NCBI RefSeq assembly: GCF_002803295.2
Contig: NZ_PGGB02000001.1
Location: 1 to 32,000, forward strand
Source of the DNA: Caedibacter taeniospiralis
GTDB lineage: Bacteria > Pseudomonadota > Gammaproteobacteria > Francisellales > Francisellaceae
Direction of reading: 5' to 3'
DNA: 32,000 bases
In this document: positions 226 to 25,986 of the stretch, piece after piece
How the letters are laid out: every line of letters begins with the position of its first letter
Numbering within the stretch: position 1 is the stretch's first letter
Made by a program: the position numbers and the translations under genes
Notes under the pieces: generated by a model
What the model was told of the DNA's origin: nothing
The model's input: the letters and a program-made list of their open reading frames with translations, nothing else
The model's database searches: none

Positions 226-1861
<1,636 letters not shown>

Positions 1862-1976
1862 AAGGTACGAGTATGATGTTGAATTTTTAATGTTGAATGT
1901 TGAATTTTTGATGTTTGAAGTACGAAAGAAATTAAGAAAGAGCGAGAAGTATTTGAGTGTTTACAAATGATGTTTT

Positions 1977-2092
1977 TTCTAGAGACTAGAAACTAGAGAC
2001 TAGAAACTAGAAACTAGAAACTAGAGACTAGAGACTAGAGACTAGAAACTAGAATACTTCTAGAAACTAGTCTCTAGTCTCTAGTATCTAGT
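1977..2092. repeat. Tandem CTAG-heptamer tract (about 16 units of ACTAGAA/ACTAGAG, then the complementary TCTAGT units) immediately 5' of tRNA-Ile
   Basis: Direct reading gives TCTAGAGACTAGAAACTAGAGACTAGAAACTAGAAACTAGAAACTAGAGACTAGAGACTAGAGACTAGAAACTAGAATACTTCTAGAAACTAGTCTCTAGTCTCTAGTATCTAGT. The two halves are partly self-complementary. Confidence 0.9.
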
Positions 2093-2169
<77 letters not shown>

Positions 2170-2311
2170 TCTAGAGACTAGTGTCAAGAGACTAGAAACT
2201 AGGGATTGAATCTTGCTGTGCGAGATGATTTTTTAAATGAATCATCGCGAAGCGATTCGAGTCTGGTTTCTAGTTTCTAGAGTAAGCGCAGCGAGCGTTC
2301 TAGTATCTAGA
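2170..2311 (+). mobile_element. CTAG-heptamer palindromic element, ITS copy 1 (142 bp), between tRNA-Ile and tRNA-Ala
   Basis: The sequence is TCTAGAGACTAGTGTCAAGAGACTAGAAACTAGGGATTGAATCTTGCTGTGCGAGATGATTTTTTAAATGAATCATCGCGAAGCGATTCGAGTCTGGTTTCTAGTTTCTAGAGTAAGCGCAGCGAGCGTTCTAGTATCTAGA. It is identical to 2388-2529. Confidence 0.9.
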
Positions 2312-2387
2312 GGGGCCATAGCTCAGCTGGGAGAGCGCCTGCTTTGCACGCAGGAGGTCAGGAGTTCGATCCTCCTTGGCTCCACCA
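2312..2387 (+). tRNA. tRNA-Ala (anticodon TGC)
   Basis: The sequence is GGGGCCATAGCTCAGCTGGGAGAGCGCCTGCTTTGCACGCAGGAGGTCAGGAGTTCGATCCTCCTTGGCTCCACCA. It has a G3:U70 pair, anticodon loop TTTGCAC and an encoded CCA. Confidence 0.97.
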
Positions 2388-2529
2388 TCTAGAGACTAGT
2401 GTCAAGAGACTAGAAACTAGGGATTGAATCTTGCTGTGCGAGATGATTTTTTAAATGAATCATCGCGAAGCGATTCGAGTCTGGTTTCTAGTTTCTAGAG
2501 TAAGCGCAGCGAGCGTTCTAGTATCTAGA
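2388..2529 (+). mobile_element. CTAG-heptamer palindromic element, ITS copy 2 (142 bp), between tRNA-Ala and 23S
   Basis: It is a base-for-base duplicate of 2170-2311, offset by 218 nt. Confidence 0.9.
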
Positions 2530-2535
2530 GCCGAG

Positions 2536-2550
2536 ATCTTTAACAATTTA
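2536..2550 (+). promoter_or_regulatory. boxA-like antitermination element in the spacer upstream of 23S
   Basis: ATCTTTAACAATTTA matches the core of the enterobacterial rrn boxA (TGCTCTTTAACAATTTA). It sits in the expected spacer position. Confidence 0.6.
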
Positions 2551-2729
2551 TTATAGAGTAATGACCAAGAGAATAAGCGCAAACGGCGGATGCCTTGGCA
2601 GTCAGAGGCGAGGAAAGACGTGATAGCCTGCGAAAAGCTTCGGGGAGCTGGCAAATAAGCATTGATCCGAAGATATCTGAATGGGGGAACCCACCTCACT
2701 CATAAAGTGCTCAGCACTTTATTCATTTC

Positions 2730-2762
2730 GAGAAACTAGAGATTGGAAACTAGAAACTAGAG
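2730..2762 (+). repeat. One-sided CTAG-heptamer tract inside an expanded 23S helix-9 region (expansion roughly 2693-2768)
   Basis: GAGAAACTAGAGATTGGAAACTAGAAACTAGAG lies inside a stem closed by CCTCACTC / GAGTGAG. A perfect small hairpin (ATAAAGTGC TCA GCACTTTAT) sits next to it. The region is much longer than its E. coli counterpart. Confidence 0.6.
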
Positions 2763-2837
2763 TGAGTAGAGGGTGTAATTTGTGCATGAATGAGTATTTT
2801 AAGAGTGGGGTATCACTGACGTAAGTTAAGTGAGGCG

Positions 2838-2868
<31 letters not shown>

Positions 2869-3200
2869 TAGGAAAAGAAATCAACCGAGATTCCCTAAGT
2901 AGCGGCGAGCGAAGGGGGAAGAGCCTGGTATACTTTAGCATGTGAGTTAGTCGAACATTCTGGGAAGGATGACCATAGCAGGTGATAGTCCTGTAGACGA
3001 AAGCTTGGATGTGGAACTAGGTATACGAATAAGTAGGGCGGGACACGAGAAATCCTGTTTGAAGAAGGGGGGACCATCCTCCAAGGCTAAATACTACTGA
3101 CTGACCGATAGTGAACCAGTACCGTGAGGGAAAGGCGAAAAGAACCCCGATGAGGGGAGTGAAATAGAACCTGAAACCGTTTGCGTACAAGCAGTCAGAG

Positions 3201-3345
3201 CTAGAAACTAGAGACTAGAAACTAGAGACTAGAGATTAGGGGTTGAAGCGCTTCGCGATGATTAATTTACAAAAATAAATCATCTTGCAAAGCAAGATAC
3301 GACTCCTGGTTTCTAGTCTCTAGTTTCTAGTTTCTAGGAGACTAG
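3201..3345 (+). mobile_element. Intervening sequence / CTAG-heptamer palindromic element at the 23S helix-25 position
   Basis: It is inserted between the conserved GTACAAGCAGTCAGAG and TGATGGCGTACCTTTTGTATAATGGGTCAGCGA. The arms are CTAGAAACTAGAGACTAGAAACTAGAGACTAGAGATTAG and TTTCTAGTCTCTAGTTTCTAGTTTCTAGGAGACTAG. The core is the reverse complement of the 6397-6529 core type. Confidence 0.85.
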
Positions 3346-3765
3346 TGATGGCGTACCTTTTGTATAATGGGTCAGCGAGTTACTTTTAGTGGCGAGGATA
3401 ACTGAATAAGGGATCCGTAGCGAAAGCGAGTTTTAATAGAGCGGACAGTCGCTAGGAGTAGACCCGAAACCGACGCGATCTATCCATGACCAGGTTGAAG
3501 GTTGGGTAACACCAACTGGAGGACCGAACCCGGTAATGTTGCAAAATTATGGGATGAGTTGTGGATCGGAGTGAAAGGCTAATCAAGCGCGGAGATAGCT
3601 GGTTCTCCCCGAAAACTATTTAGGTAGTGCCTTGTGAATGACTCGTTGGGGTAAAGCACTGTTTCGACTAGGGGGATTTTGCGATCTTACCGACTCGATG
3701 CAAACTTAGAATACGACGAAGTTGAATCACGGGAGACACACGGCGGGTGCTAAGGTCCGTCGTGG

Positions 3766-3803
<38 letters not shown>

Positions 3804-3838
3804 GTTATCGCTAAGTGGGAAACGATGTGGGAAGGCAT

Positions 3839-3902
<64 letters not shown>

Positions 3903-3957
3903 GAGTCGGCCTGCGCGAAAGATTTAACGGGGCTAAGCGATACACCGAAGCTGCGGG

Positions 3958-4392
3958 ACTAGAGACTAGAGACTAGAAACTGGAGACTAGAGGAGATAAG
4001 ATGCCGTATCACAATTTATCAGTATATCAGAAGGCATATCAGTTAGCGCTGGAGCTACACGTGGAGAGTATGAAGTGGCCGCGGATAGAACAGTGTGAGA
4101 TTGGGAGTCAATTAAGGCGAGCGAGCAAATCCATATGTGCGAACATAGCGGAAGGGATGGGCAAGCAAGCGAGTGAAAAGGAAGTAAGAAGGTTTGTTCA
4201 GATAGCGATAGGCTCTTGCGATGAATGCCGGGTGTGGCTGGATTTTGCAAGGGACTTAGGGTATATCGATCAGGAGAGTCATAGGGGCTACGATGAGAGG
4301 TATTGCGAAGTTGGGCGAATGTTAAGAGGTATACAGAGAAGATATAGCTGATGTCTATTCTAGTATCTAGTTTCTAGTATCTAGTTTCTAGT
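3958..4392 (+). mobile_element. ORF-bearing intervening sequence at the 23S helix-45 position, bounded by CTAG-heptamer arms
   Basis: It is inserted between CCGAAGCTGCGGG and CGGTAGGGGAGCGTTCTGTAAGC. The left arm is ACTAGAGACTAGAGACTAGAAACTGGAGACTAGAGG. The right arm is TTCTAGTATCTAGTTTCTAGTATCTAGTTTCTAGT. Confidence 0.88.
4001..4351 (+). CDS. 23S rRNA intervening-sequence protein (S23p-type four-helix-bundle family)
   Basis: The 116-aa ORF has family hallmarks: Y.KAYQLALEL, QLRRASKSICANIAEG, IAIGSCDEC and ARDLGYI. A GGAG lies about 7 nt upstream of the ATG. The position inside a helix-45 IVS is the classic context for this family. Confidence 0.85.
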   Translation: MPYHNLSVYQKAYQLALELHVESMKWPRIEQCEIGSQLRRASKSICANIAEGMGKQASEKEVRRFVQIAIGSCDECRVWLDFARDLGYIDQESHRGYDERYCEVGRMLRGIQRRYS

Positions 4393-4946
4393 CGGTAGGG
4401 GAGCGTTCTGTAAGCTTATGAAGGTGCATTGAGAAGTGTGCTGGAGGTATCAGAAGTGCGAATGCTGACATGAGTAACGATAAATAAGTGAGATTCTTAT
4501 TGGCCGAAAACCCAAGGTTTCCTACGCAATGTTAATCAACGTAGGGTAAGTCGGCGCCTAAGGCGAATCCGAAGGGAGTAGTCGATGGGAAACAGGTTAA
4601 TATTCCTGTACCGATGGTAGTTGCGATGGAGAGACGGAGAAAGCTAGGTCTGCCTGGCGGATGGTAGTCCAGGTGAAAGCGTGTAGGTAGTGCACTTAGG
4701 CAAATCCGGGTGTATGATGATCTGAGGCGTGAGAGGGAACAGGGCTCTACGGGGTTCTGCCAAGAGATTGATGCTCGGCTTCCAGGAAAAGCTTCTAAGC
4801 ATAAATTACCATTGACCGTACTGTAAACCGACACTGGTGGGTGGGTAGAGAATACCAAGGCGATGAGAGAACCCAGGTGAAGGAACTAGGCAAAATGACA
4901 CCGTAACTTCGGGAGAAGGTGTGCCTCATTAGGGTGAAGGACTTGC

Positions 4947-5045
4947 CTGACCACTAAATTCTATGATGGATGAAAGCTGTTGAGAGTTGTAGAGATAGAC
5001 AATTTGTTGATAGCCTGTTGTAGGACGTGGAATTTAGTGGTCAGG
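4947..5045 (+). other. Extended hairpin (23S helix-63 variable region) closed by a 15-16 bp perfect inverted repeat
   Basis: CCTGACCACTAAATTC (4947-4961) and GAATTTAGTGGTCAGG (5030-5045) enclose about 68 nt that are absent from the E. coli homologous hairpin. Confidence 0.6.
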
Positions 5046-5185
5046 TGAACGTCTGGAGCGTGAAGAGGTTGCAAATACCAGGTGGCTGCGACTGTTTACT
5101 AAAAACACAGCACTCTGCGAACTCGGAAGAGGAAGTATAGGGTGTGACGCCTGCCCGGTGCTGGAAGGTTAATTGAAGGGGTTAT

Positions 5186-5486
5186 CCTACCACTTAATTA
5201 TTTTGGAGTTTGATATGTATTGTGTATACGTGATTTATTCGAAAGAATTAGATAGTTTTTACTTGTGGGTTATAGTGAAAACCTAAGGAAAAGGATTGAT
5301 TCGCATAAGTCGGGTAGAAGTAGATATACAAGCCGAACGAGAGATTGGATTCTTGTCTACTACGAAGCTTACGCAAGTGAAAAGCTTGCTAGGTTAAGAG
5401 AAGCTAAATTAAAGCGAGCGAATCGAATGAGGAGTTTGTTGTATAAAGGCTTAAGAGAAGAAATATCAGAGTAATTAAGTGGTAGG
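5186..5486 (+). mobile_element. 301-bp insertion in 23S domain IV (hairpin just 5' of helix 69), bounded by a 15-bp perfect inverted repeat and carrying a GIY-YIG ORF
   Basis: CCTACCACTTAATTA (5186-5200) is the exact reverse complement of TAATTAAGTGGTAGG (5472-5486). The flanks GAAGGTTAATTGAAGGGGTTAT and AGAAGCTCTGGATCGAAGCCCCAGTAAACGGCGGCCG are contiguous in other 23S rRNAs apart from a short loop. Confidence 0.85.
5215..5474 (+). pseudogene. Small GIY-YIG nuclease-family ORF (UPF0213/YhbQ-like), frameshifted near codon 17
   Basis: The ATG at 5215 gives MYCVYVIYSKELDSFYLWVIVKT*, which contains the GIY-like strand. The frame from 5265 continues (V)GYSENLRKRIDSHKSGRSRYTSRTRDWILVYYEAYASEKLARLREAKLK, which contains the YIG, Arg and Glu motifs. 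The two parts join only after a 1-nt (or 2-nt) frame correction around 5260-5266. Confidence 0.7.
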
Positions 5487-5509
5487 AGAAGCTCTGGATC
5501 GAAGCCCCA

Positions 5510-5552
<43 letters not shown>

Positions 5553-5553
5553 C

Positions 5554-5591
<38 letters not shown>

Positions 5592-5664
5592 CGATGGCCA
5601 CACTGTCTCCAACTGCGACTCAGTGAAATTGAAATTGCTGTGAAGATGCAGCTTTCCCGCGGCT

Positions 5665-5696
<32 letters not shown>

Positions 5697-6095
5697 CTTT
5701 GCACTGGACTTTGAGAATATTTGTGTAGGATAGGTGGGAGACTAAGAGATTCGTACGCTAGTATGGAAGGAGTCGACGTTGAAATACCACCCTGATATTT
5801 TTGGAGTTCTAACTCAGACGAGAGTCGAGGACAGTGTATGGTGGGTAGTTTGACTGGGGCGGTCTCCTCCTAAAGAGTAACGGAGGAGTACGAAGGTGCA
5901 CTCGGCGCGGTCGGAAATCGCGCCAAGAGTATAAAGGCAAAAGTGCGCTTAACTGAGAGAGTGACGGCTCGATCAGGTACGAAAGCATGCTATAATGATC
6001 CGGTGTTTTTTTTTGAATAAGACATCGCTCAACGAATAAAAGGTACGCTAGGGATAACAGGCTTATAAATTCTGAGAGTTCCTATTAAAGAATTT

Positions 6096-6130
<35 letters not shown>

Positions 6131-6341
6131 TGGTGCAGAATCTGCCAAGGGTTTGGCTGTTCGCCAATTAAAGTGGTACGTGAGCTGGGTTTAAAACGTT
6201 GTGAGACAGTTTGGTCCCTATCTGTTGTAGAATTAAGAAACGAGGCTGAGATCGACGCCAGTACGAGAGGACCGACTAGAACTAGCCTCTGGTTCGGCAT
6301 CTATTTCAACAAAGGCATAGCCCAGTAGCTACGTTCGGAAT

Positions 6342-6374
<33 letters not shown>

Positions 6375-6396
6375 AGCCTCAAGATGAGATCTCCCG

Positions 6397-6529
6397 TCTA
6401 GAGACTAGAAACTAGAGACTAGAAACTAGGAGTTGAGTCTTGCTTTGCAAGATGGGTTGTTTTTTATAAATCAATTCATCGCGAAGCGATTCAAGCTCTA
6501 GTTTCTAGTCTCTAGTTTCTAGTCTCTAG
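6397..6529 (+). mobile_element. Intervening sequence / CTAG-heptamer palindromic element at the 23S helix-98 position
   Basis: It is inserted between AAGATGAGATCTCCCG and TTAAGGGTTGTTGAAGACTACGACGTTGATAGG. The arms are TCTAGAGACTAGAAACTAGAGACTAGAAACTAGG and CTCTAGTTTCTAGTCTCTAGTTTCTAGTCTCTAG. The core contains the hairpins CTTGCTTTGCAAG and CGCGAAGCG. Confidence 0.85.
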
Positions 6530-6668
6530 CTTAAGGGTTGTTGAAGACTACGACGTTGATAGGCTGGCTGTAGAAGTGCAGTAATGTATGAAGCTAACCA
6601 GTACTAATTGCCCGAGAGACTTGGTTATTACTCTATGATAGATTGTTAGAGCTTTCTGCTCGCAGGTT

Positions 6669-6784
6669 ACCTGATGAAAATAGCGACTGTGAACCACCTG
6701 ATTCCATTCCGAACTCAGAAGTGAAAACAGTTAGCGTCGATGATAGTGTGGCATTCGCCATGTGAAAGTAGAACATCATCAGGT
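6669..6784 (+). rRNA. rrf: 5S ribosomal RNA
   Basis: The terminal stem is ACCTGATGA...TCATCAGGT. The conserved CCGAACTCAGAAGTGAAA block is present. It lies directly 3' of 23S. Confidence 0.9.
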
Positions 6785-8417: not shown

Positions 8418-9332
8418 ATGGTGATCACTAAGCATCAACAAGGCATTTTAAAAAACTTACCTGATTCAGCGATCTATTTGTTTTTCACATTGGAAAATGA
8501 AAATGAAAAAGAATTAGCAATGACAATGCAAAGCTTGCGCCAACTGGTCGATGGACAATCCATCGTGCTTGGTCTGGGTGAAAAAATGATGGCAAGGACT
8601 GACATGAATCTCGCATATCACCCGTATCAACCAACGCCAAGACAGAAAAAGCTTGCAGTAAAAACAGTTTGTGATTTGGTGCTTTGGTTAAGAGATCACG
8701 ATCAAGGGGTGCTTATGCACAAAGCAAGACAACTGATTGCGGTTATAAAAGATGCTTTCATTTGCCGTGATATCGTCAGAGCCTGTACCTATTTGACCCA
8801 GGAGCAAGATGGAAAAGTGGTCGATCATGATTTATCAGGGTTTGAGGATGGCACAGAAAATCCAAAGGGTGAAGACCAATTCAATACGGCGATTATTCGT
8901 TCGGGGGATAAATATCTCAATGGTTCAAGCTTTTGGGTTATTCAGAAGTGGCAGCACAACTTGGAGTGGTTAGATAAATCCAGCCAGCAGGCGAAAGAAG
9001 AGTTGATTGGTAGAAGTCTTGATGATAATAGAGAGCTCGAGGATAGTCAGGCTTTTGCGCATGTTAAACGTACAGCCCAAGAGAGTTTTGCGCCTGAAGC
9101 CTTTATGTGGCGCCGTTCAATGCCGTGGATCAATGATCAACTGGAAGGAGGTCTCATGTTTTCATGCTTTGCCACGAGCTTCTATCCATTTGAGGTGCAG
9201 TTTGCACGCATGACTGGAGAAGAAGATGGGATTGTTGATGGGCTGTTTAAGTTTTCCAAGATTTTATCAACGCAGTTTTTATGGTGCCCACCCTTTGTTA
9301 AAGGGCAATTATTGCTGCCTGAGTTTACGTAA
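8418..9332 (+). CDS. Dyp-type peroxidase family protein
   Basis: The 304-aa product carries the Dyp GxxDG-type motif (SGFEDGTENPKGED) and the C-terminal FARM...DG..FS pattern. Its start abuts the glpK stop (TAAATG). Confidence 0.75.
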   Translation: MVITKHQQGILKNLPDSAIYLFFTLENENEKELAMTMQSLRQLVDGQSIVLGLGEKMMARTDMNLAYHPYQPTPRQKKLAVKTVCDLVLWLRDHDQGVLMHKARQLIAVIKDAFICRDIVRACTYLTQEQDGKVVDHDLSGFEDGTENPKGEDQFNTAIIRSGDKYLNGSSFWVIQKWQHNLEWLDKSSQQAKEELIGRSLDDNRELEDSQAFAHVKRTAQESFAPEAFMWRRSMPWINDQLEGGLMFSCFATSFYPFEVQFARMTGEEDGIVDGLFKFSKILSTQFLWCPPFVKGQLLLPEFT

Positions 9333-9385
9333 GCAGTTTTAGCATGGGACACAATAGCTTTTTCGCCGATAATGACGATTGCGTA

Positions 9386-9405
9386 GGGGCGTATTGCATA
9401 CGCCC
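9386..9405. terminator. REP-like GC hairpin between convergent genes (probable bidirectional terminator)
   Basis: GGGGCGTAT TGC ATACGCCC lies between the Dyp stop (9332) and the GNAT stop (9408). Confidence 0.5.
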
Positions 9406-9407
9406 TT

Positions 9408-9869
9408 CTAAAAGTGGGCGGTGACTTTGTCAAGACCTAACTTCTTCATGCGATAGGCGTTTTCACCATTTAGATAGTAGTTATGTAGGATCTTATAAAT
9501 ACTAAACCCAAGTTTCTGGTAAAGATGAATCGCGCCAATATTGCTGGTGTTGACCTCAAGTGTGAGCATGGCAATGGTGTTTGGTAACTCGTTGATAGCG
9601 TATTGGATTAAGTTGTGTGCGATTCCTTTTCCTTGATATGCTGGTAAGACTGCCAGCGAGTAAATGCGTGCACTTTTCTGGCGAACAAACAAGAGTATAT
9701 AGCCAATTACCTGATGGTTATCATGCGCTAGATATAGCAGATTCCGCGGTGAGCGAATGTGATAATAAAATTGTGATTTACTGATCTGATCGGTGTTAAA
9801 AAGCGTGTATTCTAGCTCAGTTAGTGCGACCACATCACTTTTTTGAGCAACACGTACGCTAATCGTCAT
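9408..9869 (-). CDS. GNAT-family N-acetyltransferase (RimI-like)
   Basis: The product reads MTISVRVAQKSDVVALTELE...LAVLPAYQGKGIAHNLI...LEVNTSNIGAIHLYQKLGF, which carries the acetyl-CoA motif Q/RxxGxG/A. The ATG at 9869 overlaps the stop of the upstream ATP-grasp gene (ATGACGATTAG), so the longer track ORF start is unlikely. Confidence 0.8.
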   Translation of the reverse strand: MTISVRVAQKSDVVALTELEYTLFNTDQISKSQFYYHIRSPRNLLYLAHDNHQVIGYILLFVRQKSARIYSLAVLPAYQGKGIAHNLIQYAINELPNTIAMLTLEVNTSNIGAIHLYQKLGFSIYKILHNYYLNGENAYRMKKLGLDKVTAHF

Positions 9870-15585: not shown

Positions 15586-15793
15586 ACCGTTTTCGCCCTG
15601 TGCGGCAGTGAACGCTTCAATATTTATCTTATTAATTTCATTATTTTTCTAAGCTGCCTGTACGGCAGTGGACTAAAGAAGATATAGCTGCTAAAAAAAT
15701 AGCAATTTCTAAGCTGCCTGTACGGCAGTGGACAACAACCTTCATATGTGGGGCTTCCGCAATCTTTTCTAAGCTGCCTGTACGGCAGTGGAC
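15586..15793 (-). CRISPR. Type I-F-style CRISPR array: 4 repeats of 28 nt (the trailer-most one degenerate) and 3 spacers of 32 nt
   Basis: The minus-strand repeat GTCCACTGCCGTACAGGCAGCTTAGAAA sits at 15646-15673, 15706-15733 and 15766-15793. A degenerate copy GTTCACTGCCGCACAGGGCGAAAACGGT sits at 15586-15613. The periodicity is exactly 60 nt. The repeat closely matches the I-F consensus GTTCACTGCCGTACAGGCAGCTTAGAAA. Confidence 0.9.
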
Positions 15794-15939
15794 TGCAAAA
15801 TTTTAGATTAAAGCGCAGATAAAATAAAGGGTTGCTGACGCGTTGCCAATAAAAACCCTTATTTTTTAGTCATACTCTAAAGGCTTGATTTTTAAAGAAC
15901 TTCCAGCAGCCCCCCAAAAAAAGGGTTCAGCCTCAATCG

Positions 15940-16855
<916 letters not shown>

Positions 16856-17460: not shown

Positions 17461-18703
17461 CTATTTAGGCATAAATGGTGGGTAAGCATCCAAGTCACCT
17501 CTTAAATGCCGCGCCAATAAAAGTGCCTGAACATGTGGCAATAACCCGATTTGCACCTCTTCACCCAAAAATGGGTGTTGGATCGTTTCCTGCTTACGGT
17601 CGCTGCGAGCCATGGAGAGCGGAACGCGAGGGCGAGTAGACCCGGGTAGCCTTGCGCTGTTGATCAGCAAGCGACGTGCCGAAGGCGCCAGAGCGAAGTC
17701 TGTGAAACAGCTTTTACCCAAGGCGTAGAGTAGAATCCCGGGCAAAATTTATACCGCCGAGGATAGCCGATTCGATTTTGTGTATGGATATACAAAATCT
17801 ATCATGAGGCCCGAGGCACCCTATTTGTAAAGTTACAAGCAATAGTTTTCTGGTATCATCCTTGAGTTTTACAGAACCACCCACTTCAATTTCAAAGTCC
17901 TGAGGTTTCACTTGACGTCGATTAATTAAACTCAACACCATACGATCAACAAACCAGGCACGAAACTCCTCCAAAATATCTTGTGCCAAACTATCTCTAC
18001 CGGGGCGCACTTGATGAAGAAATCCCATCTGTGGATCAAGCCCAACCCCCTGCAAAGCAGCACTGATGTCATTACCGACGACGCTATACAAAAATGATAG
18101 CATTGCATTTACAGGATCTAATGGTGGACGACGACTACGAGTATTAAATTGAAAATCTGTCCGAGCCACAGGTAGGATTAATTCATTAAAAACACCAAAG
18201 TAAGCAGATGCCGCCTCGCCTTCTAAACCTAAAATAAGCTCTAGACTTTGTGCTTTTTGCAAGCGGCGAAGTGCATAGCTTATTTTCTCAATGGCATTTT
18301 CGACTTCGCTATTTTGGTCATGATTTCGCACCCTACGATAAAGTACCGCACGAGATGAATTAAGCTTGGCAGCAATAACATTTCTGGCAATAGCCACGGG
18401 ATTGAGCTCGGCTATTTTATACTGTGTTTTACGCAATATAACATTACCATTTTGTCTACCATGCAATCGTCCAAGAAAACGTCCATACTCGGTAAAGAAA
18501 GCAAGGTGAACATTGTTTTCACCGCAAAATCCCAGTAAGAAGGGGGATAGCATTACATTGCCAAAACAGTAAATTGCCTGAATAGCATGAATAGGTAACT
18601 GCATTACTTTCTGCTTTGCGACTTCAATAACAAGCGTTTCACGTTCTTTGTGCAAATAAGCGCCCTGCCTAGTAATGTAAAGGGTGTTTTGTAATTTCTT
18701 CAA
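17461..18703 (-). pseudogene. cas1: cas1 (type I-C) interrupted by a 220-bp element at 17601-17820
   Basis: The upstream piece (18703-17821) ends ...DDTRKLLLVTLQ(I). The downstream piece (17600-17464) reads (D)[45 protein letters not shown]. Deleting 17601-17820 gives one 340-aa ORF of typical Cas1 length and C-terminus. Confidence 0.9.
17601..17820 (-). mobile_element. GC-rich non-coding insertion element, copy 1 (220 bp), inside cas1. On the gene's sense strand it reads GGTGCC...GCAGCG
   Basis: It shares a ~70-nt left module and a ~104-nt right module with 19747-19934 and 23600-23803. It has no ORF. Boundaries come from a three-way alignment and are good to about +/-3 nt. Confidence 0.85.
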
Positions 18704-19338: not shown

Positions 19339-20349
19339 TTATTTCAGGCTTAAGACCTTCAAGATCAGCAAGTGAGAAACTTCCATCAGGATTCACCGTT
19401 AACGATCGATGTACTTTTGCTGATGAGTGTTGCCCCGATCTGGAATTATGCAGCCACCAGATCAGTTTTTCCACCGCCATGGAGCCTTCTGGTCTTGCAG
19501 AAGAAGCATCACCCTCAAACAACTTTGGGAATATAGATTTTATGGTCTCTGCATCCGCATCGCTAAAACCAGTTTTTTCGGCTAGCTGCGGCGACATCGC
19601 GCCATAGGCAACGTAAACAGCAGTATCGACTCTGTGTTTCATACCCATGGTATCGGAACTTTTTTTACTGCCATCGCCATCACCACTAACACTTTTGGTA
19701 ATTTGCGTACTGGTAATGCTTACTGGCTCAATACTGAAAGCCGTAGGGTGCCTCGGGCCTCATGATAGATTTTGTATATCCATACACAAAATCGAATCGG
19801 CTATCCTCGGCGGTTTGGATAAAGCTGTTTCACAGACTTCGCTCTGGCGCCTTCGGCACGTCGCTTGCTGATCAACAGCGCAAGGCTACCCGGGTCTACT
19901 CGCCCTCGCGTTCCGCTCTCCATGGCTCGCAGCGAATGAATACTCACCGGACCACGGATAGGAATTGATACCCCATCCTTTTCTTCACTTTTAAAAGCAA
20001 ATAGTTGTCCAAAAGCACGCACATCGAACCAAGTTTCACAAGCTTTTTTTGCAGCAGTTTCTGGCTTGATTTTTTTAGCGTTTAAAACATCTTTACCTAG
20101 CACACCTTCAGCCCTGGCTCGAAGACTGTGATATTCATCCGTCTTCTTTTCATCTGACTGAACAAAAATAGCCTGGCCCGCATCTTGGAGGCGATCTCTT
20201 GCTTTTCGCTTCAAACATACATCTGTAACTTCGCCAAAACCATCATAATCTGTACGTGGCCGGTTACCATTTAAAGGATCACCGTTCGGATTAGCGTTTT
20301 TTACGGAAAAAATAATGGCGAAATCGATTTTTTTGCTCAGTGAATTCAT
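19325..20349 (-). pseudogene. cas7: cas7 (csd2, type I-C) interrupted by a 188-bp element at 19747-19934
   Basis: The N-terminal piece reads MNSLSKKIDFAIIFSVKNANPNGDPLNGNRPRTD...GVSIPIRGPVSIH. The C-terminal piece reads (T)AFSIEPVSITSTQITKSV...MGMKHRVDTAVYVAYGAMSPQLAEKTGFSDADAE.... Deleting 19747-19934 yields a single 278-aa ORF. Confidence 0.9.
19747..19934 (+). mobile_element. GC-rich non-coding insertion element, copy 2 (188 bp), inside cas7 and inverted relative to copies 1 and 3
   Basis: The plus strand reads GGTGCCTCGGGCCTCATGATAGATTTTGTATATCCATACACAAAATCGAATCGGCTATCCTCGGCGGT...CACAGACTTCGCTCTGGCGCC...CCATGGCTCGCAGCG. This is the reverse complement of the plus-strand reading of the other two copies. 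It lacks the ~32-nt central segment of copy 1. Confidence 0.85.
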
Positions 20350-20475: not shown

Positions 20476-22365
20476 TTATCTTTTGAGGAAGCGAGTAAAA
20501 GCATCACAAATATCGTCCAACAATCTGTTGTAAGCAGCCTCTAAAGGTGGCAACTTAACACGTAACCGCTGTTGATATGGAGTCAAAGCTTCGCGAATAC
20601 TCTGCCAAGTTGATACCGGATGATGAGCAAAACGCTGCATTAAACGACTAGCATGTGTAGTGCGATTTTTTTCTCCCGCAATAGATATTGCCATTTCCTC
20701 AATCATTTCAGCTACTGCCAGCAGCCGCCCAAATAGATAATCCCGCCCTGTATATTTCATATCAAGTGACATAGCATATTCTCTCCTTTTATTTAAATTG
20801 GGTTGGCGTTCTGGGTGGTGAAAACCGCGATAGAGCGCACAGGCGACACCAAGGTTTCTCTCCCATTCCCAAAGTTCACTGTTGTTTCTGTTGCTGGCTC
20901 GACTGACAGCCAGGTTGACAATATCCATAGGTAAAGCTCTGCCTTCCAAAATACAGGGCATCATCCTTTCATAAAGGCTCTTTTTAAGCGCTTCATTGCT
21001 TTTCACCATATCACCATAGGTAGCTTGCAATATATTCCAAGGTGAAGGAGCACTGACAGACCAAAACACTGTTGTTTTTGGCTTTTTATTATTACCTGAC
21101 TCGACTTCCTTGCTAATCCGCTGCGGCCAAGCCAAATGGCTGTGCCATTTTTCGATAGTTTGCACGTAATCCTTAGCCATAAAATCGCGATAATAAATAA
21201 TCGCCATACGTCCAGGAGTGGCAGAGTCCAGCCCCATAATAACGATGCTTTCCTGATCCTTGAGTCTGGCGATGCGACCATCGAAATAACCTGCCATGTA
21301 TCGATTTAACGCTTTGACAAAGTTTTGTCCAAGGTCGCTCGTTACATTAATTTCAGTAGCCAATGAATCTTTTCCATCATCAGTAACTTCCTCGAAATTG
21401 TCCAGCTCCAGACTTGGCACCAATGGAGCAGGGATAGGTTTGCCTGATACTGCCCATGCCACCACCACCTGATCTCCATTCTTGCTAGCCTGATTAGCAA
21501 TCAGCCAACGCAATGTATTATGAGCTTTTTGGGTAATATCAAAACCGACGTTCGCAACCTGCTCTCCATCTGTAAATCGACCACGGAAAGTAAAGCCGGA
21601 TGTATCATTGGCTGATACCAGCTTTGCTTTATCACCTGTATGTCTAAGCTTTGCGGGATGATTTGAGGCTGAGGGTTGCAATAGTCCAGATACATAACAA
21701 AGCTCATCCTTCCCTGAACCTTCGGCATCAAAAGCTATCCATGACTGTTGTATTGATTTATCTTTCCAAGTATCTGGAAATAGGTCGCCTGGAGTAATAA
21801 CACTCCAGCAAACCATTGCGTTACCCTGATCCAGTTCGCCTTTTTCCTTCGGTAGGGTTTTGAATATTAAAGGCAAAGGATTTTCATCTGTTACCTCAAA
21901 TGGCCAAGAGGTTAAAAGCCGATTATTTTCATCCATATAACAAACTTTAGCGTTTATTAGATCTTCTATCACAGTCTGCTTAATGATGTAATTGCATACC
22001 GCTTGAACCTTTGGATGACTCACGCCAGAGTTACACCATTCTCTGATTTGTGACCGATATCCATCGAAATAAGGTTTTTTCTTCCCACCGAACTTTTCAT
22101 AGTCGGCTGCAACATATTGCAGCTTGTCCGCTAAAGGGTGTGGTGCTTCGCCACTACTTCTTCCTGCAGACTTTTCTGTAGATGGCAAAATGATCTGCGT
22201 CTTTTCTAAAACTTTTGCACCTATAAAATTTCCATCAAGATCTATTTGAATATTTATATGGGCATTCTGCATAGTATGGCTTGTCGGCATTAGCTGCTTT
22301 TCTTCCGGCAAATCCAGCGTCATAGCTTTTTCATAGGTCTCGTAAAGCTTTGCCATCCAGCTCAT
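20476..22365 (-). CDS. cas8c: Cas8c (Csd1), type I-C large subunit
   Basis: This is a 629-aa intact ORF between cas5 and cas7, in the canonical I-C position and size. It overlaps the cas5 stop by 4 nt. I have no specific motif check beyond context and size. Confidence 0.75.
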   Translation of the reverse strand: MSWMAKLYETYEKAMTLDLPEEKQLMPTSHTMQNAHINIQIDLDGNFIGAKVLEKTQIILPSTEKSAGRSSGEAPHPLADKLQYVAADYEKFGGKKKPYFDGYRSQIREWCNSGVSHPKVQAVCNYIIKQTVIEDLINAKVCYMDENNRLLTSWPFEVTDENPLPLIFKTLPKEKGELDQGNAMVCWSVITPGDLFPDTWKDKSIQQSWIAFDAEGSGKDELCYVSGLLQPSASNHPAKLRHTGDKAKLVSANDTSGFTFRGRFTDGEQVANVGFDITQKAHNTLRWLIANQASKNGDQVVVAWAVSGKPIPAPLVPSLELDNFEEVTDDGKDSLATEINVTSDLGQNFVKALNRYMAGYFDGRIARLKDQESIVIMGLDSATPGRMAIIYYRDFMAKDYVQTIEKWHSHLAWPQRISKEVESGNNKKPKTTVFWSVSAPSPWNILQATYGDMVKSNEALKKSLYERMMPCILEGRALPMDIVNLAVSRASNRNNSELWEWERNLGVACALYRGFHHPERQPNLNKRREYAMSLDMKYTGRDYLFGRLLAVAEMIEEMAISIAGEKNRTTHASRLMQRFAHHPVSTWQSIREALTPYQQRLRVKLPPLEAAYNRLLDDICDAFTRFLKR

Positions 22366-23066
22366 AACGATGCCTCCTCTGTATCCACATCCAGCAAGTT
22401 ATCTCCGATAACAAATTCTTTAGCTTTCATCTCACGAATAAAACGACGAATTTCGCAACTCCCTGGTCTTGGAAATTCCACAACACCATTTTTCATAACG
22501 GCATGCCAAAAACGGCTATGAAATTCATCTTTTCCCGTCTCGTCCGGGTAATCGAAACCATGAAACATCAAACCAAACGATAGCTCATCAATGTTGTCAT
22601 AGGCTCCAAGACCTTCTCCAAATTCGCAAGGCTCTACATAACCCTGGCAATCTCTTACACCAAGAAAAATATCTTGCCGCCCACCCTTTTCCAGCATGCG
22701 CTTTGCGATAGCAAAATGTTTTCCATCAATTTGATCCGCTGCCAATTCAGGACGATACTTGTTCATTTCAAAGTGTGCCTCTACCTGATACTCAACTTCG
22801 TGCAGAAAGGTATATATAGCCAAGCTATTTCCACCACCCCAAACCAGAGGTTTAGTGCCTTTGGTTTGAGTTCGAATGGACTTTATTACCCGAACCCTAT
22901 CCACATGCCAAACGATAGTTGGTTTCTAATAGATTGACTTGAGAACACCCTTAATCGCCTCATAAGTAGGCACATGGTAAGAGCATTTTTCCCCACCAAT
23001 CCTGGTAATTGGGTCGGTAAATAAAGCGTAACGTCCCCAAAGTCTGAAACTAATAATGTTTTTCAC
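22362..23066 (-). pseudogene. cas5: cas5 (cas5d, type I-C) with an in-frame TAG at 22926-22928
   Basis: The minus strand reads ...[28 protein letters not shown].... Cas5d proteins have a conserved (A/S)IYWKP here, so the TAG replaces TGG (Trp). The likely start is the GTG at 23066, preceded by AGGAGG. The N-terminus [19 protein letters not shown] is typical of Cas5d. Confidence 0.85.
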
Positions 23067-23074
23067 GTTACCTC

Positions 23075-25747
23075 CTATAAAATCTGAGTTGTCATCATAC
23101 CTACGCACTCGGTTCCAAGACCAAAACTTTTGCTGTAATACATCTCATCCAGGTAGTAAATGCCATGCCCAGGCTGAATTTCGTGCACTGCTTTCTCCTT
23201 TTTTAGTTTGTCCCAAACGTTAGGAAAGACATTCACGCTATATTTTTGCGCTTGTCGTAACAATTGATAGTAGCGACGAGCATTAAACTCCTTTGCTACA
23301 GAGCAAAGCTCAGCTACCAGCTTTTGCCCCTTCTTACCATATTGTACAATGACTGCCTGGGTTGGAGCGTCGATAGCCTTAAACTGTTTACCCGCCTCCA
23401 TAAAAGCCTGTCGCAAGAGGGGGACTTTCCCTTCACGATCAGAAAAATTTGAATTACATCCGATGCGAGAACTTAACAGGTTGAGCAAACTATCGTTCCT
23501 GTGATCTTTTCCTTTCAAGGGGTAGCTCATATCATCTGCTCGATCAAAAAAATAATAGCGAAAATACTGCTTGATCGCTGCCGGTGACAATACATCTTCC
23601 GCTGCGAGCCATGGATAGCGGAACGCGAGGGCGAGTAGACCCGGGTAGCCTTGCGCTGTTGATCAGCAAGCGACGTGCCGAAGGCGCCAGAGCGAAGTCT
23701 GTGACGTTGAGGCGGACGGCCCGGGCAAAATTTATACCGCCGAGGATAGCCGATTCGATTTTGTGTATGGATATACAAAATCTATCATGAGGCCCGAGGC
23801 ACCCTTGTACCCTTCAGAAAGAACCCTCTTCGCCTTCTCTTTGCCTATTTCAATTTCCTTCAGCATTCCTGTACTTTCACTGTCCGGGTTCACAATAAAA
23901 ACCTGCCCTTTGATCAAATTTCCTTGCTCATCTTTCAGATTGCCATTCCTATTACAGCGTCCTGCAGCCTGAGCAATAGAGTCCAAACCTGCCAAGAAGC
24001 GTATCACAGATGCAAAGTCCACATCAACGCCTGCTTCAATCAGTTGCGTTGAGATACAAAGCACGGGCTTTCGATGCTTCAGGTGCTTCTTAATTAGATA
24101 TAGGAAAATCCTGCGATGACGCGGACATTGATTTGTACTTAAATGGAATAAAGACGATGCATTCACCTGCTCGACACAACGTTGATACAACTCCTGCGCC
24201 CATGTTTTGGTGTTGACAATTACCAAGCAACTCCCGTGTATCTGGAGCTGCTCTACCGCCAGTGTAGATATCTCTGCGACATTCCAACCACCAGGCTTTA
24301 TTTGGTTATAAATACGTACCCGCCGAAGCTCAATAAAATGCCTATCAAAGTCGCCTGCCAGTTCATTTTCTTGGGGAATGACTAACTGCCCTTTATCAGG
24401 TTTTTTTAATTCGTTCAGTAAAGGCTGAGTCGCTGTACAAAGCACTACCGTAGTATCGCAACGCTGCACGAAAAAATTCATTGCGTTACAAAAAATATGC
24501 ACACAATTAATTGGCAATGTCTGAATCTCATCAAAAACAAGCACACTTTTAGCTAACTGATGCAAACGCCTAACACCTTTGGTTCCACCACTAAACAAGG
24601 TTTCCAGTAACTGCACCATAGTGGTCAGAACAATGGGAGCGTCCCAGTTTTCCGATACCAGTTTGGCGTGCCAGGTTTGCTGTTCAGACTCCAAATTAGA
24701 GTGATGTTCCAATACCCACGACCTAGCATCATCTCGATGCTCTACCACTTCGCGTATCACCTTAGCATTTTGCTCAATGATAGACGTGTATGGGATAACA
24801 TAGATAATACGCTCCAATCCGTGATGCTGAGCATGATGTAAAGCGTAACGTAAACTGGCGTAAGTTTTACCTCCACCTGTTGGTACAGTTAGCGTATAAA
24901 GCCCTTGGGACTTATACGCGTTACTCTTACAGTTATCGGAAATTTCCCGACGCAATTCATCTACATAGTTTCGCACTGACAGCCCCGAAAGATAATTTTC
25001 CAAGCGACCAATAGCAACGTCCCAATTAATTGATCCTGACTTTCCTAGGCGCTCTTTTAATCTGACAGGATCTTCAAACTCAGCGCTATTGAGTCTGTCA
25101 GCATCAATTAGGCAACTGAACAAAAAGCGGGTGAAAAATCCCAGGTTAAAGTAATCGATCATCGATGGCTTTTCAAAATTGACAAACTCTTTCAGTTTAT
25201 CAAACAGACCTTTTACCAACTCAACATTTGCAATTTGCTCAATTTTATCAAGTATCTCTTTCTCTGCGACCTGCCGACACTCGTCAAGGTTTACTTTCTC
25301 ATCAGCCTTACTCATACGATCAGAAAATACAGGCTTATCATCAATTCCAAAACAATCGATTAAACCACTGTGATGAGAGGCAATACATAAAGCCAGCATT
25401 TGACCACACAGCTCTCCTTGCCCAGCACCACCAATACGTTTCAGCTTCTGCCAAACCAAGTGAGCACCTGCTGTTGAGTGATCGACTTTCCCTTTCATCC
25501 CTTTAGCATCAACATAATCATCCTCATCAGGGTTAATTTCACCTGTAGCTGACTTTATATAGCGTTGAAACTCTTGGCTGTACTTTCCGAAATCATGCAA
25601 CAAACCAAGCAACCTGCCAGCATTTTCCGCACCCATTTTACTGGAAAAGGTACTAGCAATCTCTCCAACCTCATACAAATGAGTATGAAGAAACTGACAT
25701 TCTCCATCAATTTTTCTTTTGTGTGCAATAAATTTAGGCTTACTCAT
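23075..25747 (-). pseudogene. cas3: cas3 (HD nuclease plus SF2 helicase, type I-C) interrupted by a 204-bp element at 23600-23803
   Basis: The N-terminal HD motif (LLGLLHDFGKYS), Walker A (TVPTGGGKT), DEIQ box and later helicase motifs (AAGRCNR) are intact. The upstream piece ends ...RVLSEGYK. The downstream piece reads (E)DVLSPAAIKQYFRYYFF.... Deleting 23600-23803 gives an 822-aa ORF. Confidence 0.9.
23600..23803 (-). mobile_element. GC-rich non-coding insertion element, copy 3 (204 bp), inside cas3, in the same orientation as copy 1
   Basis: It has the same left and right modules as the other copies. Its central segment is ATAAATTTTGCCCGGG plus the unique stretch CCGTCCGCCTCAACGT. The length is a multiple of 3, but the element carries an in-frame TAA (23732-23734). 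Confidence 0.85.
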
Positions 25748-25986
25748 TGCTCCACTTTCCTTCTCAATTCCCTATAAAACCAAAGCATACCTTGCAAAAT
25801 AAAGCGTCGTCAACCAGTTCCCTCAAAAACCTCAGATTTATACCTGTTCCAAATTTTGTTCATACACACCTCCGTATCGACATCTATTTTACCCTGGCAC
25901 AGGTATCGCCGATTTATTCCTAATCCGCTTTCTATTTCCCTAAAACCTCTTTATTCTATAGCCTGATTTTTTAACACCGCTAACCT

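Follow-up and report, generated by a model that had tools for sequence, protein, structure and literature searches.

The cas3 gene of Caedibacter taeniospiralis, an R-body-forming endosymbiont of Paramecium, is very probably a pseudogene, disrupted by the insertion of a small mobile element in a decaying type I-C CRISPR-Cas operon. The operon was analyzed in a window of 32,000 nucleotides (contig NZ_PGGB02000001.1, positions 1 to 32,000). The window is chromosomal DNA of this bacterium, and the N-terminal Cas3 open reading frame (ORF) at 23732..25747 (671 aa) is 100% identical to the C. taeniospiralis NCBI protein P0006. An internally deleted copy of a non-coding mobile DNA element of 290-293 nt landed in cas3 after the sequence TCTTC. 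The insertion removes the last 174 residues of Cas3 and adds 24 foreign codons and a TAA stop. In this obligate endosymbiont, the type I-C system is very probably disappearing through ordinary reductive evolution, with the element acting as one agent of decay.

Boundaries and reading frame of the insertion in cas3

The minus strand between 17081 and 25747 carries cas3, cas5c, cas8c, cas7, cas4, cas1 and cas2 (named from NCBIfam), and a type I-C CRISPR array with six repeats follows downstream of cas2. Gene order and array are those of a type I-C system. The reading frame of cas3 is not intact, as a TAA at 23732-23734 removes the last 174 codons. As a reference for gaps and lesions we used L001, a metagenome contig carrying an intact type I-C operon with 77% nucleotide identity over the operon. 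Alignment of the operon DNA with L001 resulted in three clean insert gaps of 207, 191 and 223 nt (Table 1).

The 207-nt gap is located in cas3. In a sequence-only reading of the window, a 204-bp repeat copy had been placed here at 23600-23803. The place was correct, but according to the L001 alignment the copy ends at 23806 and is 207 nt long. This length is still a multiple of 3, so the two Cas3 parts remain in the same frame as had been proposed. On the plus strand the copy reads 5'-CGCTGCGAGCC...GAGGCACCCTT-3' and is therefore antisense to cas3. The open frame of cas3 continues for 24 codons into the element (KGASGLMIDFVYPYTKSNRLSSAV) and then reaches the TAA, which had been predicted at exactly this position and closes the 671-aa ORF. 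The insertion point lies between the codons of Tyr647 and Glu648, directly after TCTTC. This is about 45 residues past helicase motif VI (QAAGRCNR, from residue 594) and ahead of the final 174 residues.

The sequence-only reading had singled out colinearity with type I-C Cas3 across the junction as the point that could overturn it. Insert-free Cas3 aligned colinearly and without gaps across the junction with 15 intact type I-C Cas3 proteins (57-83% identity), and the same was seen with L001, where tblastn covered Cas3 residues 2-817 in a single frame. The closest homologue has SEGY followed directly by EDVLSP, and none of the 15 has a residue at the position of the lysine that had been assigned to Cas3 as its last residue before the insert. 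Thus, the lysine of 'SEGYK' is encoded by the element. The ancestral Cas3 consequently counts 821 aa (647 + 174) instead of 822. As proposed, the HD nuclease and the helicase core are kept, since both domain models match the N-terminal ORF: TIGR01596 (cas3_HD) covers Cas3 residues 20-222 with the full model (E = 3e-33), and TIGR01587 covers the superfamily 2 (SF2) helicase core at residues 286-610. The suggested C-terminal ORF with a TTG start at 23590 is also present (23075..23590, 171 aa).

Table 1. Coordinates of the insertion, the other operon lesions and related features (window positions unless pKAP298 is named).
Feature	Position	Strand	Remarks
Repeat copy 3	23600..23806	+	207 nt; 207-nt gap against L001; nhmmer match
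Target motif TCTTC	23595..23599	+	directly 5' of the element; fits the rule W-C-N-N-Y/A, consensus WCAWT
cas3 5' part	23807..25747	-	residues 1-647; HD nuclease and SF2 helicase core through motif VI
In-frame TAA from the element	23732..23734	-	terminates the shortened Cas3 ORF
cas3 3' part	23075..23599	-	last 174 codons (EDVLSPAAIKQYF...) and stop; same frame as 5' part
Repeat copy 1	17601..17823	+	in cas1, behind codon 293; length of 223 nt is no multiple of 3
Repeat copy 2	19744..19934	-	in cas7, around codons 138-144; length of 191 nt is no multiple of 3
Premature TAG, cas5 codon 47	22926..22928	-	Trp in L001
cas8c C-terminal frameshift	20476..20534	-	8 nt missing near 20493 relative to L001
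Type I-C CRISPR array	16491..16855	-	6 repeats, 5 spacers
Full-length pKAP298 copies	21747-22038, 25355-25646, 33116-33405, 38853-39145		290-293 nt
Deleted pKAP298 copy	32011-32124
pKAP298 group II intron, D1-D4	39185-39366		Rfam
pKAP298 group II intron, reverse transcriptase ORF	39601-40626		Rfam
pKAP298 group II intron, D5/D6	40945-41058		Rfam

Further lesions in the type I-C operon

The other two gaps correspond to copies of the same repeat in cas1 (copy 1) and cas7 (copy 2). Copies 1 and 3 are direct to each other, as had been noted before, and share 105 nt at 99% and 86 nt at 100% identity. Copy 2 is oriented opposite to both and has the largest internal deletion of the three. The arms of the three copies are 97-100% identical and their centres differ (repeat search, MAFFT). 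An nhmmer profile of full-length copies detected the two arms of copy 3 with E values of 4e-35 and 2.4e-35, and with this profile no further copies were found in the window outside the cas operon. Two lesions are independent of the repeat, namely the stop codon in cas5 and the frameshift in cas8c, where the last ~60 residues run in another frame. The operon thus contains five independent lesions: the element in cas3, cas7 and cas1, a nonsense mutation in cas5 and a frameshift in cas8c. With cas5, cas8c, cas7 and cas1 broken, no Cascade could form.

These lesions bear on the possibility of a functional split Cas3, in which the 671-aa HD-helicase and a C-terminal fragment started separately at TTG 23590 would reassemble and interference would still work. 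Separate Cas3' and Cas3'' proteins do occur in some type I systems. Both parts of the gene are open, the insert is a multiple of 3 and the 171-aa TTG ORF spans the C-terminal part. However, the break is not at the natural boundary between HD domain and helicase, and the element also breaks unrelated genes elsewhere. Moreover, a stop interrupts cas5 at codon 47, the frame of cas8c is shifted, and the 191- and 223-nt copies in cas7 and cas1 are out of frame. Given these other broken cas genes, expression of Cas3 in two pieces is unlikely to be biologically relevant, and we regard a working split enzyme as highly improbable.

Distribution of the repeat on pKAP298 and in metagenomes

A BLAST search against PLSDB detected the element only on the C. 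taeniospiralis R-body (killer) plasmid pKAP298, with five copies. Copy 3 corresponds to a 292-nt element with an internal deletion of 85 nt and has 0/207 mismatches to pKAP298 25355-25646. Similarly, copy 1 has a 67-nt internal deletion and 0/223 mismatches to pKAP298 33116-33405. As judged from these matches, the copies in cas1 and cas3 stem from two different source lineages. The three window copies represent three different internal deletions of the 290-293-nt element, and the fifth plasmid copy represents another. The central segment CCGTCCGCCTCAACGT, previously described as specific for copy 3, is unique within the window only. It is also found in the full-length pKAP298 copy p25647 and, with one base different, in two more pKAP298 copies. 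We rejected the idea that the variable centre is a guide or cargo segment, as all variants are deletions of one master sequence.

In total, we counted three copies in the window and five on pKAP298, in addition to at least 17 distinct metagenome sites; copy length ranges from 114 to 293 nt. Elsewhere the element breaks long ORFs for a cadherin-like adhesin, a hybrid histidine kinase, a coiled-coil protein and an integrase, and thus it is not specific to cas genes. Some of the metagenome contigs, which are pKAP-like and 99% identical to the plasmid, are filled at sites that are empty in pKAP298 (L013 compared with 12502 and L020 compared with 13125). These filled and empty sites prove recent mobility of the element.

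A 20-mer from the left arm matched 20 metagenome contigs and one IMG/VR contig. Eighteen of these 21 contigs end inside the element: 16 metagenome contigs and L003 from IMG/VR, 17 in total, within its first ~83-131 nt and one further contig deeper. Contigs would be expected to end in this way at a multi-copy repeat with copies that diverge at this point. In principle, a repeat of this type, which interrupts short-read assemblies, could also produce an assembly artefact, with repeat reads misplaced inside cas3. Yet the NCBI protein of the deposited genome ends with the same element-encoded tail, and the three window copies have copy-specific internal deletions, clean junctions and colinear flanks. 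An artefact can be almost completely dismissed.

Two side observations concern the plasmid. In a metagenome variant of pKAP (L013 4468, L020 124), two additional copies lie 622 bp apart in inverted orientation; they are polymorphic and locally clustered. On pKAP298 itself (L004), an AT-rich degenerate relic at 48085-48131 is 81% identical to the last 47 nt of the element, which suggests that older, decayed copies of the family exist on the plasmid.

Ends, target and structure of the repeat

The element has fixed ends, 5'-CGCTGCGAG ... GGCACCCT, followed by one lineage-specific base. Its 5' end at CGCTGCGAG was set by the left junctions of the two pKAP sites that are known in filled and empty form. 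Every insert consists of the conserved core and one 3' base (A, G or T). This terminal base co-varies with a G/T single-nucleotide polymorphism (SNP) at position 17 of the element (Fisher p = 0.002) and thus belongs to the element. A non-templated addition or a 1-nt duplication was rejected as its origin on the basis of this co-variation, and because the base does not correlate with either flank.

Orientation of the element relative to its target is constant. It is always located directly 3' of W-C-(A/G)-W-(T/C/A), consensus WCAWT. Among 26 distinct left flanks, C is found in 26/26 and the preceding W in 25/26, followed by A/G, W and T/C/A. The base behind the element is T in 10/14 cases. No terminal inverted repeats were detected between the two ends (seed 6). 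Also, no target-site duplication was found at the three sites reconstructed with L001, and the left junctions of the two pKAP sites are clean.

These features were compared with those of MITEs (miniature transposable elements with inverted repeats). Classical MITEs have inverted ends and duplications; our element has neither, although it is small, non-coding and multi-copy as well. A MITE moved by a DDE transposase, derived from the IS256-like IS4502 or from the Tn3 family, would find matching enzymes close by, as the plasmid bears IS256-like and Tn3-family transposases. However, DDE MITEs of these families create 5-9-bp duplications, and none is present at the three reconstructed sites, with the 5' end fixed by the two filled and empty left junctions. 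As terminal inverted repeats are also absent, this origin is very unlikely.

The only strong local structure of the element is a hairpin with 12-nt arms (11/12 paired), which ends 24 nt from the 3' end. Near the 5' end only weak bulged palindromes were observed. The DNA fold of the whole element was no better than that of shuffled sequences (z = -0.3 and -0.1). Folded as RNA, copy 3 reached z = -2.0 on one strand and +0.8 on the other, and a search of Rfam with the element did not reveal any match on either strand (E <= 10).

The lack of inverted repeats and duplication, the one-sided target and the frequent internal deletions would also be compatible with a retroelement resembling short interspersed nuclear elements (SINEs). 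In such a case, element RNA would be copied into nicked WCAWT^ sites by the reverse transcriptase of a group II intron lacking an endonuclease, and an active-looking intron reverse transcriptase (444 aa) is indeed present in C. taeniospiralis and relatives. Nevertheless, the two ends of all complete copies are precise, and copies truncated at an end were not observed. The terminal base follows the lineage and is not an untemplated addition, and a structured RNA signal is missing. To our knowledge, there is no bacterial precedent for a SINE-like retroelement of this kind, and we consider it improbable.

A group II intron next to one plasmid copy

One plasmid copy adjoins a group II intron (L004, 38853-41063). 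The Rfam global alignment of the intron extended into the element, and element and intron remainder together comprise 2.2 kb. We therefore considered the element as domain I of the intron, an idea that was rejected. Intact copies of the intron are found on L028-L030 (reverse transcriptase 98-99% identical), and more distant ones on L025-L027. These intact introns start with GTGCGCCAAGC (canonical GTGCG) and carry a 5' stretch of 104 nt that is absent from the entire pKAP298. The start of the element coincides exactly with intron position 105, where the site TTCATA^ conforms to the target rule. The Rfam matches to D1-D4 and D5/D6 lie exclusively outside the element, which is accordingly no group II intron. 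According to these alignments, the element inserted into the intron, and the 5' end of the intron was lost later. As a side note, the pKAP298 intron is 5'-truncated, and its annotated reverse transcriptase has 341 aa compared with 444-447 aa in the intact copies L028-L030.

The adjoining intron with its reverse transcriptase, together with the location of the insert in coding sequence and its length divisible by 3, might be taken to indicate a self-splicing or excisable intervening sequence (a group I or group II intron or an IStron-like element) that restores cas3. The plasmid copy, however, is an insertion into the intron at TTCATA^ and not a part of it. Neither strand matches an intron or ribozyme family, so a group I intron or IStron was not found either. 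In addition, the copy in cas7 is oriented opposite to the other two with respect to transcription, and the copies bear different internal deletions. Restoration of cas3 by splicing or excision is hardly credible.

CRISPR arrays and other features of the window

The eight spacers of the two arrays in the window did not match pKAP298, the element or any other locus compared. Self-targeting spacers were therefore rejected as a cause of the cas loss. Spacers 1 and 2 of the type I-C array (16722-16825) have their first 19 nt in common (GGAAACATTGTGTTATCAT), suggestive of a partial duplication inside this array. The second, tiny array at 15646-15798 has type I-F-like 28-nt repeats (Rfam CRISPR-DR4), with three repeats and a degenerate fourth. 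No I-F cas genes were found in the window. It is this array, rather than the six-repeat type I-C array, that corresponds to the array with 'three repeats, two spacers' of the C. taeniospiralis genome paper (PMC7297999).

Upstream of cas3, the intact relative L001 carries a gene for a WYL/BrxR-type regulator (8958-9794). A counterpart was not detected by tblastn in the corresponding part of the window (25748-25986), where an ABC transporter operon follows directly.

The rRNA operon (window 226-6784) is oversized. The 16S match spans 1636 nt compared with 1533 nt of the model, and the 23S match 4066 compared with 2925. Around GGGRTTGAA cores, tandem heptamers (CTAGAAA/CTAGAGA) are arranged as inverted arms, namely at about 285-430, 1972-2100, 2160-2234, 2378-2452, 3197-3344, 3938-4405 and 6387-6550. 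These arrays resemble palindromic intervening or spacer elements, located both within the rRNA genes and between them. The CTAGAAA heptamers had prompted the idea of a cyanobacterial origin or of an SDR/MITE, which was rejected as the protein search identified C. taeniospiralis. In the 16S-23S spacer (2136-2530), the genes for tRNA-Ile and tRNA-Ala are part of a tandem duplication of 218 nt, with 94% identity over 177 nt that include the heptamers.

Discussion

The data are in line with a mobile-element insertion that very probably turned cas3 into a pseudogene. The element itself is non-coding and presumably a non-autonomous DNA transposon. Without inverted repeats and target duplication and with a short one-sided target, single-stranded or rolling-circle movement seems most likely. 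We therefore tentatively suggest that it may be mobilized in trans by an HUH-type transposase (IS200/IS605-like or IS91-like) and may be the equivalent of a palindrome-associated transposable element (PATE); this is a possible, though by no means the established, route. Compared with HUH elements, serine (IS607) or DEDD (IS110) systems would suit the signature less well.

PATEs, which are derived from transposons of the IS200/IS605 family (HUH Y1) and are non-autonomous, resemble the element in several respects. They are non-coding, multi-copy and about 0.2-0.3 kb long, they lack inverted ends and duplications, and they insert in an oriented manner beside a short target. Of the imperfect subterminal hairpins that PATEs have at both ends, our element shows a clear one near the 3' end. 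The IS91/ISCR elements (HUH Y2) share the absence of duplication, a tetranucleotide-type target at one end and dissimilar ends. Their target is GTTC/CTTG, unlike that of our element, and for the latter neither one-ended read-through products nor a transposase were observed.

Several points weigh against this interpretation. An autonomous copy or a transposase gene with the ends of the element was not found in the window, on the plasmid or among the 25 of 126 families listed for genes flanking the metagenome copies, and no autonomous partner was found on the plasmid near the right-end relic at 48085-48131. Among the families listed, no HUH, IS110 or IS607 enzyme was detected on the plasmid or in ~130 kb of flanking metagenome DNA. 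Likewise, no TnpA, TnpB or omega-RNA-like signal was found for the element. Its target (WCAWT), with a single invariant position, is less strict than the tetra- or pentanucleotide that is fixed in PATEs and characterized IS200/IS605 elements, and the hairpin at the left end is weak. With respect to GC skew, 12/18 copies share an orientation, which is not significant; a strand bias reflecting the lagging strand was therefore rejected. Hence, the element is only a candidate member of the PATEs. As to decay of the operon, the additional lesions are known from a single assembly. Finally, three insertions in the 8.7-kb operon and 0 in the remaining ~23 kb exceed the expectation of a uniform model.

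This clustering could mean that the insertions were selected, for instance because silencing of CRISPR-Cas allowed the killer plasmid or another mobile element to be tolerated. All three window copies lie in the cas operon, and copies from at least two source lineages imply independent hits. On the other hand, no match to pKAP298, the element or other compared loci was found for any of the 8 spacers, and the point lesions of cas5 and cas8c are consistent with relaxed selection. Furthermore, a reduced genome of 1.3 Mb would offer few tolerant regions, which alone would concentrate copies in dispensable genes. We consider selection for the insertions unlikely. A broader scenario would be a hitherto undescribed family without terminal inverted repeats and duplications (target WCAWT^T), which is moved between pKAP and the chromosome by an unrecognized enzyme and whose triple hit in the cas operon was favoured since it protected the plasmid-borne killer trait. 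This scenario as a whole is rather unlikely. The simplest reading remains that selection on CRISPR-Cas is relaxed in this obligate endosymbiont, with its genome of 1.3 Mb, and that insertions persist at sites able to tolerate them.

Inactivation of cas genes by insertion sequences is known from the loss of CRISPR-Cas, for example in Shigella and Escherichia. As in these cases, a mobile element breaks a cas gene in an unmaintained operon. Here, however, the element is a tiny, unclassified repeat without terminal inverted repeats and not an insertion sequence, and three copies hit one operon. Palindromic elements of Rickettsia insert in frame and without stops and are tolerated in the protein. 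In contrast, the cas3 copy has a TAA, and the 223- and 191-nt copies shift the frame. What our element has in common with the Rickettsia elements and with the QMITEs of Coxiella burnetii, the MITEs of an intracellular bacterium (PMC5896051), is that a small non-coding repeat spreads in a host-restricted genome and lands in genes.

The small repeat appears to be undescribed, as it has no match in Rfam and is not mentioned in the accessible Caedibacter literature. Identical copies on plasmid and chromosome and insertion polymorphism between pKAP variants indicate that it is recent and active.

In the genome paper of C. taeniospiralis it was stated that seven type I-C Cas proteins 'constitute a CRISPR immune system' (PMC7297999). 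We found 5/7 cas genes disrupted, which is at odds with the functional type I-C system described there. Pseudogenization as such is unsurprising for an obligate endosymbiont. In this endosymbiont lineage, the repeat causes assemblies to fragment and disrupts genes, and its direct copies in cas1 and cas3, 6 kb apart, are substrates for deletion of the operon and thus provide a concrete route of defence loss during genome reduction.

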